Source of the DNA: a phage
Reading direction: 5' to 3' (one strand)
Sequence record: KM389366.1
Length of the DNA: 534 bases
Shown: positions 1 through 534 of the stretch, piece by piece
Numbering within the stretch: the first letter of the stretch is position 1
Layout: every line of letters starts with the position of its first letter
The notes under the pieces: generated by a model
What the model saw: only the letters and a program-made list of their open reading frames with translations
Database searches by the model: none
Told to the model about the DNA's origin: nothing
Program-made: the position numbers and the translations under genes

Positions 1-2
1 CC

Positions 3-179
3 GAGTTTCGCAAATGCCTGGCGGAAGTGCGGGCGCAGGCGTTTAATGACCTTTGCTCGGTGTTCGTTAAGAACGCGACGGTTGTCGGGCTGGACGATGG
101 CGACATCGTTACGGTGAAAGAGGCGACGGACGCCCTGCTGGATTGTGCGGAACAGCTTCGCAAAGGAGGAAACAAGTGA
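3..179 (+). CDS. 3' end (58 codons plus stop) of a hypothetical protein, probably a prophage early-region gene; 5' end lies outside the window
   Basis: Frame 3 is open from the window start to TGA at 177-179 and translates to EFRKCLAEVRAQAFNDLCSVFVKNATVVGLDDGDIVTVKEATDALLDCAEQLRKGGNK*. Codon usage is mostly enterobacterial-preferred (CTG, GCG, GAA, AAA, ACG), and the stop overlaps the start of the downstream gene (GTGA), a typical operon arrangement. I recognise no family-defining motif. It is absent from the supplied ORF track, presumably because it has no in-window start. Confidence 0.6.
   Translation, partial: EFRKCLAEVRAQAFNDLCSVFVKNATVVGLDDGDIVTVKEATDALLDCAEQLRKGGNK
163..169 (+). promoter_or_regulatory. 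Shine-Dalgarno ribosome-binding site (AAGGAGG) for the downstream CDS
   Basis: AAGGAGG at 163-169 is a perfect match to the core anti-SD complement, with a 6-nt spacer (AAACAA) before GTG at 176-178. It lies within the last codons (K-G-G) of the upstream CDS. Confidence 0.65.
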
Positions 180-534
180 GCAAGATTGACTATCAGGCAC
201 TGCGTGAAAAGGCAGAGAAAGCAACGTGTGGTGATGGTTGGGGGCGTACATGGCAACTTGTTCCGTTCGGTGGCGCGTCTACTGACCCGCAGATGCTTAA
301 CAAGCGTGGGGAGATGTTCAACTCATGCAAGACATGGCTGAGGCTGGGCGGCATGCTGGATGACCAGGAAACAGCGGACGACCTGTCGGCGGCAGAGTAC
401 AAAGTTCGCGTGGACGGTAAAATCGTTATCGAACCGAAAGAAGATATCAAGGAGCGGCTTGGGCGTTCTCCTGGTAAAGGCGATGCGCTATTGCTGACGT
501 TTGCTTTCCCTGTGTCGAAGCGTCTGCGAATTCC
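176..534 (+). CDS. 5' portion (119 codons seen, continues past window end) of a probable Ead/Ea22-like family prophage protein; start GTG at 176
   Basis: Frame 2 is open from nt 71 to the window end with no in-window stop. GTG 176-178 is the only start with a strong SD and overlaps the upstream TGA as GTGA. Translation: MSKIDYQALREKAEKATCGDGWGRTWQLVPFGGASTDPQMLNKRGEMFNSCKTWLRLGGMLDDQETADDLSAAEYKVRVDGKIVIEPKEDIKERLGRSPGKGDALLLTFAFPVSKRLRI... The N-terminal block I-x-x-QALRE-x-AE-x-A...D-x-WG matches the conserved N-terminus of lambda Ea22 / Ead-like proteins as I recall them; this is from memory, not a search. Codon usage is coding-like with a few rare codons (AGG, CGA, CTA, CGG), typical of prophage genes. 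The family call is tentative; the CDS call itself is firmer. Confidence 0.72.
   Translation, partial: MSKIDYQALREKAEKATCGDGWGRTWQLVPFGGASTDPQMLNKRGEMFNSCKTWLRLGGMLDDQETADDLSAAEYKVRVDGKIVIEPKEDIKERLGRSPGKGDALLLTFAFPVSKRLRI

Follow-up and report, generated by a model that had tools for sequence, protein, structure and literature searches.

A chimeric ead–terL reading frame in phage record KM389366.1, probably the scar of a deletion in a Uetakevirus prophage

The DNA analyzed here is a 534-nucleotide stretch from a phage (sequence record KM389366.1; the whole stretch is hereafter referred to as the window). It carries the 3′ end of one gene and the start of a second open reading frame (ORF) on the same strand. 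The best single comparator was record KM389362 (hereafter referred to as L003), an unverified contig of 4,647 bp from Escherichia phage Phi05_1387 B, genus Uetakevirus. The features of the window are as follows:

1–179, plus strand: 3′ end of the upstream gene, with its last 58 codons and the stop codon TGA at 177–179 (from the translation).
165–169, plus strand: Shine-Dalgarno motif GGAGG, 6 nt 5′ of GTG176 (read from the sequence).
176–534, plus strand: second ORF, starting at GTG176, with 119 codons in the window and open at its 3′ end.
176–229, plus strand: Ead/Ea22-derived codons 1–18 (V/M-SKIDYQALREKAEKATC), from the PF13935 score and the DNA match to the start of ead in L003.
230–233, plus strand: crossover interval GGTG, common to both parents (three-way comparison with the arms in L003).
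234–534, plus strand: 3′ part of terL, TerL codons 374–474 of 491, with G373 at 230–232 (DNA identity to terL genes).
176–534, plus strand: chimeric in-frame ORF Ead(1-18)-G-TerL(374-491), with a predicted total length of 137 aa.

The upstream ORF is 98% identical to its counterpart in Phi05_1387 B, a 148-aa protein of unknown function encoded by an ORF at L003 54–500. It also corresponds to ORF9 of ST104 (match to orf9 at 92%), for which the record notes a similarity to HK620 hkaH, and it matched phrog_27745 (1.8e-22) and phrog_492. The start codon of the second ORF overlaps the stop codon of this gene (TGA177-179) as GTGA. The same overlap is annotated in an E. coli prophage (L002; CDS 7685-8161 and CDS 8158-9054), and the CDSs named “ead/Ea22-like family protein” by PGAP in E. 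coli prophages, including the second of these two, start at the base equivalent to GTG176. The window has the same start codon, ribosome-binding site (RBS) and upstream partner gene as annotated ead genes, and the overlap suggests, from its sequence, that translation of the second ORF is coupled to that of the upstream gene. One profile, phrog_368, matched the upstream ORF at its C-terminus (window 3–176, profile positions 176–239) as well as the N-terminus of Ead (window 176–235, profile positions 1–21), and some plasmid annotations name both adjacent genes ead/Ea22-like; by these matches, the upstream ORF and ead look like mosaic relatives of each other. A serine-rich antisense ORF of 85 aa is present on the minus strand at 193–450, inside terL; the intact parent has it too (L003 4391-4636), and there is no sign that it is a gene. 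No Rfam match, promoter-like site or terminator-like site was found in the 534-base window.

The N-terminus of the second ORF matched the Pfam family Ead_Ea22 (PF13935) at 29.9 bits (E 1e-6), above the gathering score of 27. The Ead/Ea22 signature placed at 176–250 by the initial annotation is therefore real, but it is confined to the first 18–19 codons. The 20-residue N-terminal peptide alone reached the full 30 bits (aa 2–20; positions 1–19 of the 139 in the profile), and with the whole ORF the aligned stretch extended to position 37 with an unchanged score. A Pfam match over the N-terminal ~30–60 residues had been expected; the actual match covers 19. The other 100 residues yielded no Pfam or PHROG match, and profile positions 20–139 were left unmatched by the hybrid. 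For comparison, the native Ead of L003 scored 83 bits over profile positions 1–89. The signature had been described as a QALREAAE-like block followed by D-x-W-G. This description is accurate for lambda Ea22 (NC_001416), the N-terminus of which is MSEINSQALREAAEQAMHDDWGFD and which, like the hybrid, carries QALRE, but residues D20-G21-W22-G23 of the window are residues 374–377 of the large terminase subunit (TerL). At the corresponding point, the closest native Ead, that of L003, reads ...ATCGVWSLEYGEG (CGVWSLEYGEG). The misleading resemblance between G-x-W in Ead and G-D-G-W in TerL is the same microhomology that joins the two genes. Ead/Ea22 proteins are mosaics with unrelated C-terminal domains, and in lambda Ea22, a coiled-coil region, which carries the Ead_Ea22 signature, makes up more than half of the protein (PMC10834534); pro-lysogenic activity and tetramer formation have been described for Ead/Ea22-like proteins (PMC7093339, PMC10834534). 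The hybrid resembles the members of this family (lambda Ea22, P22 Ead) in its first 19 residues, but has neither the coiled coil nor a C-terminal domain of the family.

When the window was compared by megablast with 5,426 complete genomes of E. coli, 50,697 phage records and 72,556 plasmids, the search yielded matches that split into two non-overlapping classes. One class corresponds to window 1–238 and matches the ead region only (the 3′ end of the hypothetical gene and the start of ead); the other corresponds to window 230–534 and matches terL only. None of the records searched covered at least 80% of the window. The terL arm was 98.4% identical at the DNA level to E. coli M21816 (hereafter referred to as L001), 96.1% to vB_EcoP_ZX5 and 95.7% to the “putative terminase large subunit” gene of phiV10. 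Its counterparts, which include many E. coli prophages at 95–100% identity, are annotated as terminase or terminase large subunit. Up to seven copies of window-like segments were present per E. coli genome. Window 146–238, which spans the last part of the upstream ORF together with the RBS and the first ~19 codons of ead, is 91–95% conserved in many non-mobilizable E. coli plasmids of 94–120 kb and is also kept in otherwise dissimilar P22-like and Stx phages; this pattern suggests that the block is a shared recombination boundary. A protein search with the 119-aa translation returned only C-terminal fragments of TerL, with the Ead leader in none. This translation does not represent an Ead/Ea22 protein: it has 18–19 Ead residues, and the remainder is the last quarter of a large terminase. 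About 86% of the chimeric ORF is terminase.

Both arms are present in L003. Window 1–233 corresponds to L003 322–554 (230/233 identical positions, 98.3%) and window 230–461 to L003 4416–4647 (232/232). They lie on the same strand, 3,865 bp apart, and the window lacks L003 555–4419. At the junction, the window reads ...GCAACGTGTGGTGATGGTTGGGGGCG, the ead parent ...GCAACGTGTGGTGTATGGTCGCTCGA and the terL parent ...GTCAATCGGTGATGGTTGGGGGCG (both parents from L003). Base 229 is specific to ead and base 234 to terL, placing the crossover inside GGTG 230–233; past this tetranucleotide, an imperfect similarity extends up to position 238 (ead GGTGTATGGT vs terL GGTGATGGTT; (T)ATGGT). The two marks of a microhomology deletion, colinear flanks on the same strand in a relative and a breakpoint sequence shared by both parents (GGTG), were both found. 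Base 230 opens both codon 19 of the ORF and TerL codon 373 ((6001-4885)/3 = 372, from L001), and, since it occupies the same codon position in ead and terL, the fusion is in frame. The hybrid consists of Ead M1-C18, a glycine common to both parents and TerL from D374 onward. In relatives, 18 further codons precede the stop codon, giving the predicted length of 137 aa.

The identity of the terminase arm rests on PHROGs: the full-length TerL of L001, encoded between terS (Terminase_2) and the portal gene, matched phrog_2 (terminase large subunit) at 1e-52, and Pfam gave no significant match for this TerL, even at full length. No Pfam or PHROG match was obtained with the retained fragment alone (residues 373–491 predicted; 373–474 in the window). 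In the parent TerL, GHGIGKS is found at about residues 78–84 and VVFDEAS at about residues 179–184. Residues 1–372 are missing from the hybrid, and the ATPase domain with Walker A/B is absent with them. The lost part would include a Walker A-like motif (GHGIGKS), a Walker B-like motif (VVFDEAS) and the putative nuclease-domain strands IIGVDPAYSG and FIDFGYG, with the last acidic motif, GKGDALLLTF, as the only such motif predicted to be retained. Over window 230–534, the DNA is 95–100% identical to the Uetakevirus terL genes of phiV10, vB_EcoP_ZX5 and Phi05_1387 B, but the hybrid lacks the ATPase domain and presumably an N-terminal stretch of the nuclease domain. The AlphaFold models of the hybrid (pLDDT 48) and of a 202-aa C-terminal fragment of TerL (P0004; pLDDT 44) were of low confidence and unusable; Foldseek comparisons of these models with the PDB gave nothing at E ≤ 0.001 (Sf6 gp2 and the E217 TerL nuclease appeared at E 0.05–0.1), and no meaningful match to a PDB structure came from sequence or profile searches with TerL.

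Compared with Phi05_1387 B, the window lacks the remainder of ead (in full 242 aa, counted from GTG), a 105-aa ORF, the gene for a 205-aa dATP/dGTP pyrophosphohydrolase-DUF551 protein, a 115-aa ORF, terS (Terminase_2) and TerL residues 1–372. In intact relatives, the order is repressor region, DnaT-like, P, DUF1064, hypothetical, ead and a few accessory genes, followed by terS, terL, a minus-strand gene, tRNA-Arg, portal, Bbp19, protease and capsid, which is the phiV10/epsilon15-type layout. Phages of this type integrate at the 3′ end of guaA (PMC9782041), and a prophage adjacent to guaA was also seen in a Logan contig (L004, see below). By extrapolation from these relatives, the window would come from a prophage in which ead occupies a nin-like slot between the replication and packaging genes. 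In the P22-like phage ST104, the same two-gene module lies in a classical ea region between abc/erf and xis/int (abc1/abc2 - orf10 - orf9 - orf8(ead) - ... - xis - int), and the upstream ORF and the start of ead are about 210 nt apart, as opposed to the GTGA overlap in the window, L002 and L003. The ea-region location attributed to these genes holds as a general statement for lambda and ST104, but the proposed position of ead between int/xis and exo/bet/gam does not apply to the Uetakevirus relatives, in which ead lies between the replication genes and terS/terL, and in the window ead is joined to terL. The suggestion of a lambdoid ea-region origin stands as far as the Ead/Ea22 family N-terminus and a temperate enterobacterial phage are concerned, but not in view of the phiV10/epsilon15-like arms and the replication-to-terminase setting. 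Nor are ea-region cargo genes the neighbors to be anticipated: beyond a deletion junction, the expected downstream neighbors are the terL stop codon and the head genes. Between terL and the portal gene, the relatives have a tRNA-Arg and a variable slot for a minus-strand gene, occupied by four different genes in four prophages (all minus strand: L001 6451-6882, L002 13363-14064, L005 6281-6703 and L013 7493-7864); only one Pfam family (Phage_gp49_66) and no PADLOC matches were recorded for these genes. Accessory cargo just outside the window is probably to be sought in this slot.

Other lesions of terL were found in relatives. In a 39-kb Logan contig (ERR4221103; L004), in which the prophage lies next to guaA, an ORF at 8001–8492 (P0001) fuses the N-terminus of a replication protein in frame to the C-terminus of TerL; the two parts overlap by 11 nt at a junction 32 nt upstream of the terL breakpoint of the window, and further downstream the block of head genes is inverted. 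P0078 is a TerS::TerL fusion, and P0006 has lost eight codons in frame (GYG[TGLKSIGD]GWG). In related E. coli prophages, three different terL lesions lie within 20 nt of each other (L013 ~6970-7000, L014 ~6985-6995 and L015 ~2480-2490), in the codons for FEDQYQADAVF: one is an insertion of GT and the other two are different CAG>TAG nonsense mutations, and each splits TerL into ORFs of ~352–369 aa and 133 aa. This site is ~50–70 nt upstream of the equivalent of window position 230 in intact terL. P0087 is a further TerL C-terminal remnant with a foreign or deleted N-terminus, and the P0007 family (L016/L017 7001-7576) is a 191-aa TerL remnant present on more than 20 contigs, in a context that does not look like Uetakevirus (SLT, Rap1a, AlpA and KilA-N/ANT genes). 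All these remnants and lesions were found by similarity to the same terL fragment and are subject to ascertainment bias, which leaves a hotspot, or selection for keeping the 3′ end of terL, unsupported.

The exact junction and the 39-nt and degenerate 23-nt patterns spanning it were absent from the genome_contigs, viral_contigs and metagenome_contigs collections (GTDB representative genomes, IMG/VR and JGI metagenomes). Likewise, three reconstructed (guessed) 137-aa hybrids and a version starting with V were absent from a collection of 15 billion proteins. The exact junction, which did not occur among the complete E. coli genomes, phage records and plasmids either, is a singleton, previously unrecorded in the collections searched.

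In our judgment, the window is probably the scar of a ~3.9-kb deletion in a phiV10/epsilon15-like (Uetakevirus) prophage, in which ead codon 19 was joined to terL codon 373. This reading accounts for the two-arm structure (1–238 matching the ead region only, 230–534 terL only) and for a PF13935 score derived wholly from aa 2–20, against 83 bits over positions 1–89 in native Ead; it is further favored by the colinear occurrence of both arms on one strand of L003 (230/233 and 232/232), by the independent terL lesions in related prophages and by a 4-bp overlap that would be far too short for a misjoin by a k-mer or overlap assembler. Against it stand the singleton junction, the absence of the reconstructed hybrids from the protein collection and a terL arm with no decay mutations. 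An undiverged arm (232/232) implies that the event was recent, or did not occur in vivo at all; on balance, the other independent terL truncations in relatives point to genuine decay as the preferred interpretation. Illegitimate, RecA-independent recombination at the 4-bp GGTG and the imperfect ATGGT would have joined ead to terL, and the loss of terS and most of terL would have left the prophage unable to package DNA, as a step in its decay. The 137-aa hybrid is probably still made upon transcription of the early-right operon, because the junction is in frame and neither the ead RBS nor the coupling with the preceding gene has been disturbed. Most likely this product has no function and is a by-product of the deletion, since the Ead coiled coil is missing and probably no TerL domain is complete.

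An artefact, in which a library, amplification or assembly chimera would have linked two genuine segments of an intact genome of the phiV10 type, is unlikely. Junctions with microhomology can also result from template switching during PCR or MDA, and such an origin would fit both a junction found in no other record or collection searched and arms essentially undiverged from a single known phage contig. However, a perfect 4-bp overlap should be unable to seed a de Bruijn or overlap misassembly, the arms keep the order and strand of the parent, which a simple deletion would require, and comparable terL deletions and fusions occur in independent assemblies, including the 39-kb guaA-adjacent prophage contig.

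Recombination between two prophages, joining a lambdoid or P22-like ead to a Uetakevirus terL with a large chromosomal deletion or rearrangement, seems improbable to us and is less parsimonious than a deletion within one prophage. In its favor, the DNA block at the start of ead is shared, at 91–97%, with phages of the P22-like and Stx groups and with many phage-like plasmids, and E. coli genomes contain as many as seven window-like segments; nevertheless, the left arm is closest (98.3%) to the very Uetakevirus contig that also holds the right arm at 100%, and the GTGA overlap of the window is that of L002 and L003 and not the ~210-nt spacing of ST104.

The TerL C-terminus contacts the portal in some phages, which would favor a selected functional hybrid, either a new Ead mosaic with a TerL-derived C-terminus or a TerL C-terminal decoy, made from the translation signals of ead, acting against the packaging of related superinfecting phages. 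This is highly improbable: the frame, RBS and coupling are intact, Ead/Ea22 proteins are known mosaics (PMC10834534) and several degraded prophages retain TerL 3′ remnants, but an in-frame outcome has a one-in-three chance, the coiled-coil region is absent, the nuclease domain would be incomplete, with no confident fold, PADLOC gave no match, a singleton junction shows no sign of spread or selection, and ascertainment explains the recurrence of remnants. In its most specific form, an Ead-leader::TerL(373-491) hybrid kept and expressed as a decoy that, upon induction or superinfection, would compete with the terminase of the incoming phage, perhaps at the portal or in the TerL ring, and thereby prevent related Uetakevirus phages from packaging their DNA, the idea is equally improbable; if it were true, the repeated finding of terL 3′ remnants among E. 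coli prophages would reflect more than decay.

Prophage decay leaves deletion and pseudogene remnants, of which the cryptic prophages of E. coli K-12 are an example. The deletion scar proposed here resembles such remnants in being an internal deletion with a short microhomology, in the loss of packaging genes and in the fused ORF left behind; it differs in that its particular junction is recorded in no collection searched. As a prophage deletion scar yielding a chimeric ORF, the feature belongs to a well-known kind, of which it is an instance not recorded before, and its value is mainly corrective, opening no new biology: a PF13935 match above its own threshold would prompt the label “ead/Ea22-like family protein” for an ORF that is mostly terminase. 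For the phage itself, the consequence is that the host prophage is very probably packaging-dead, which bears on whether it can spread.
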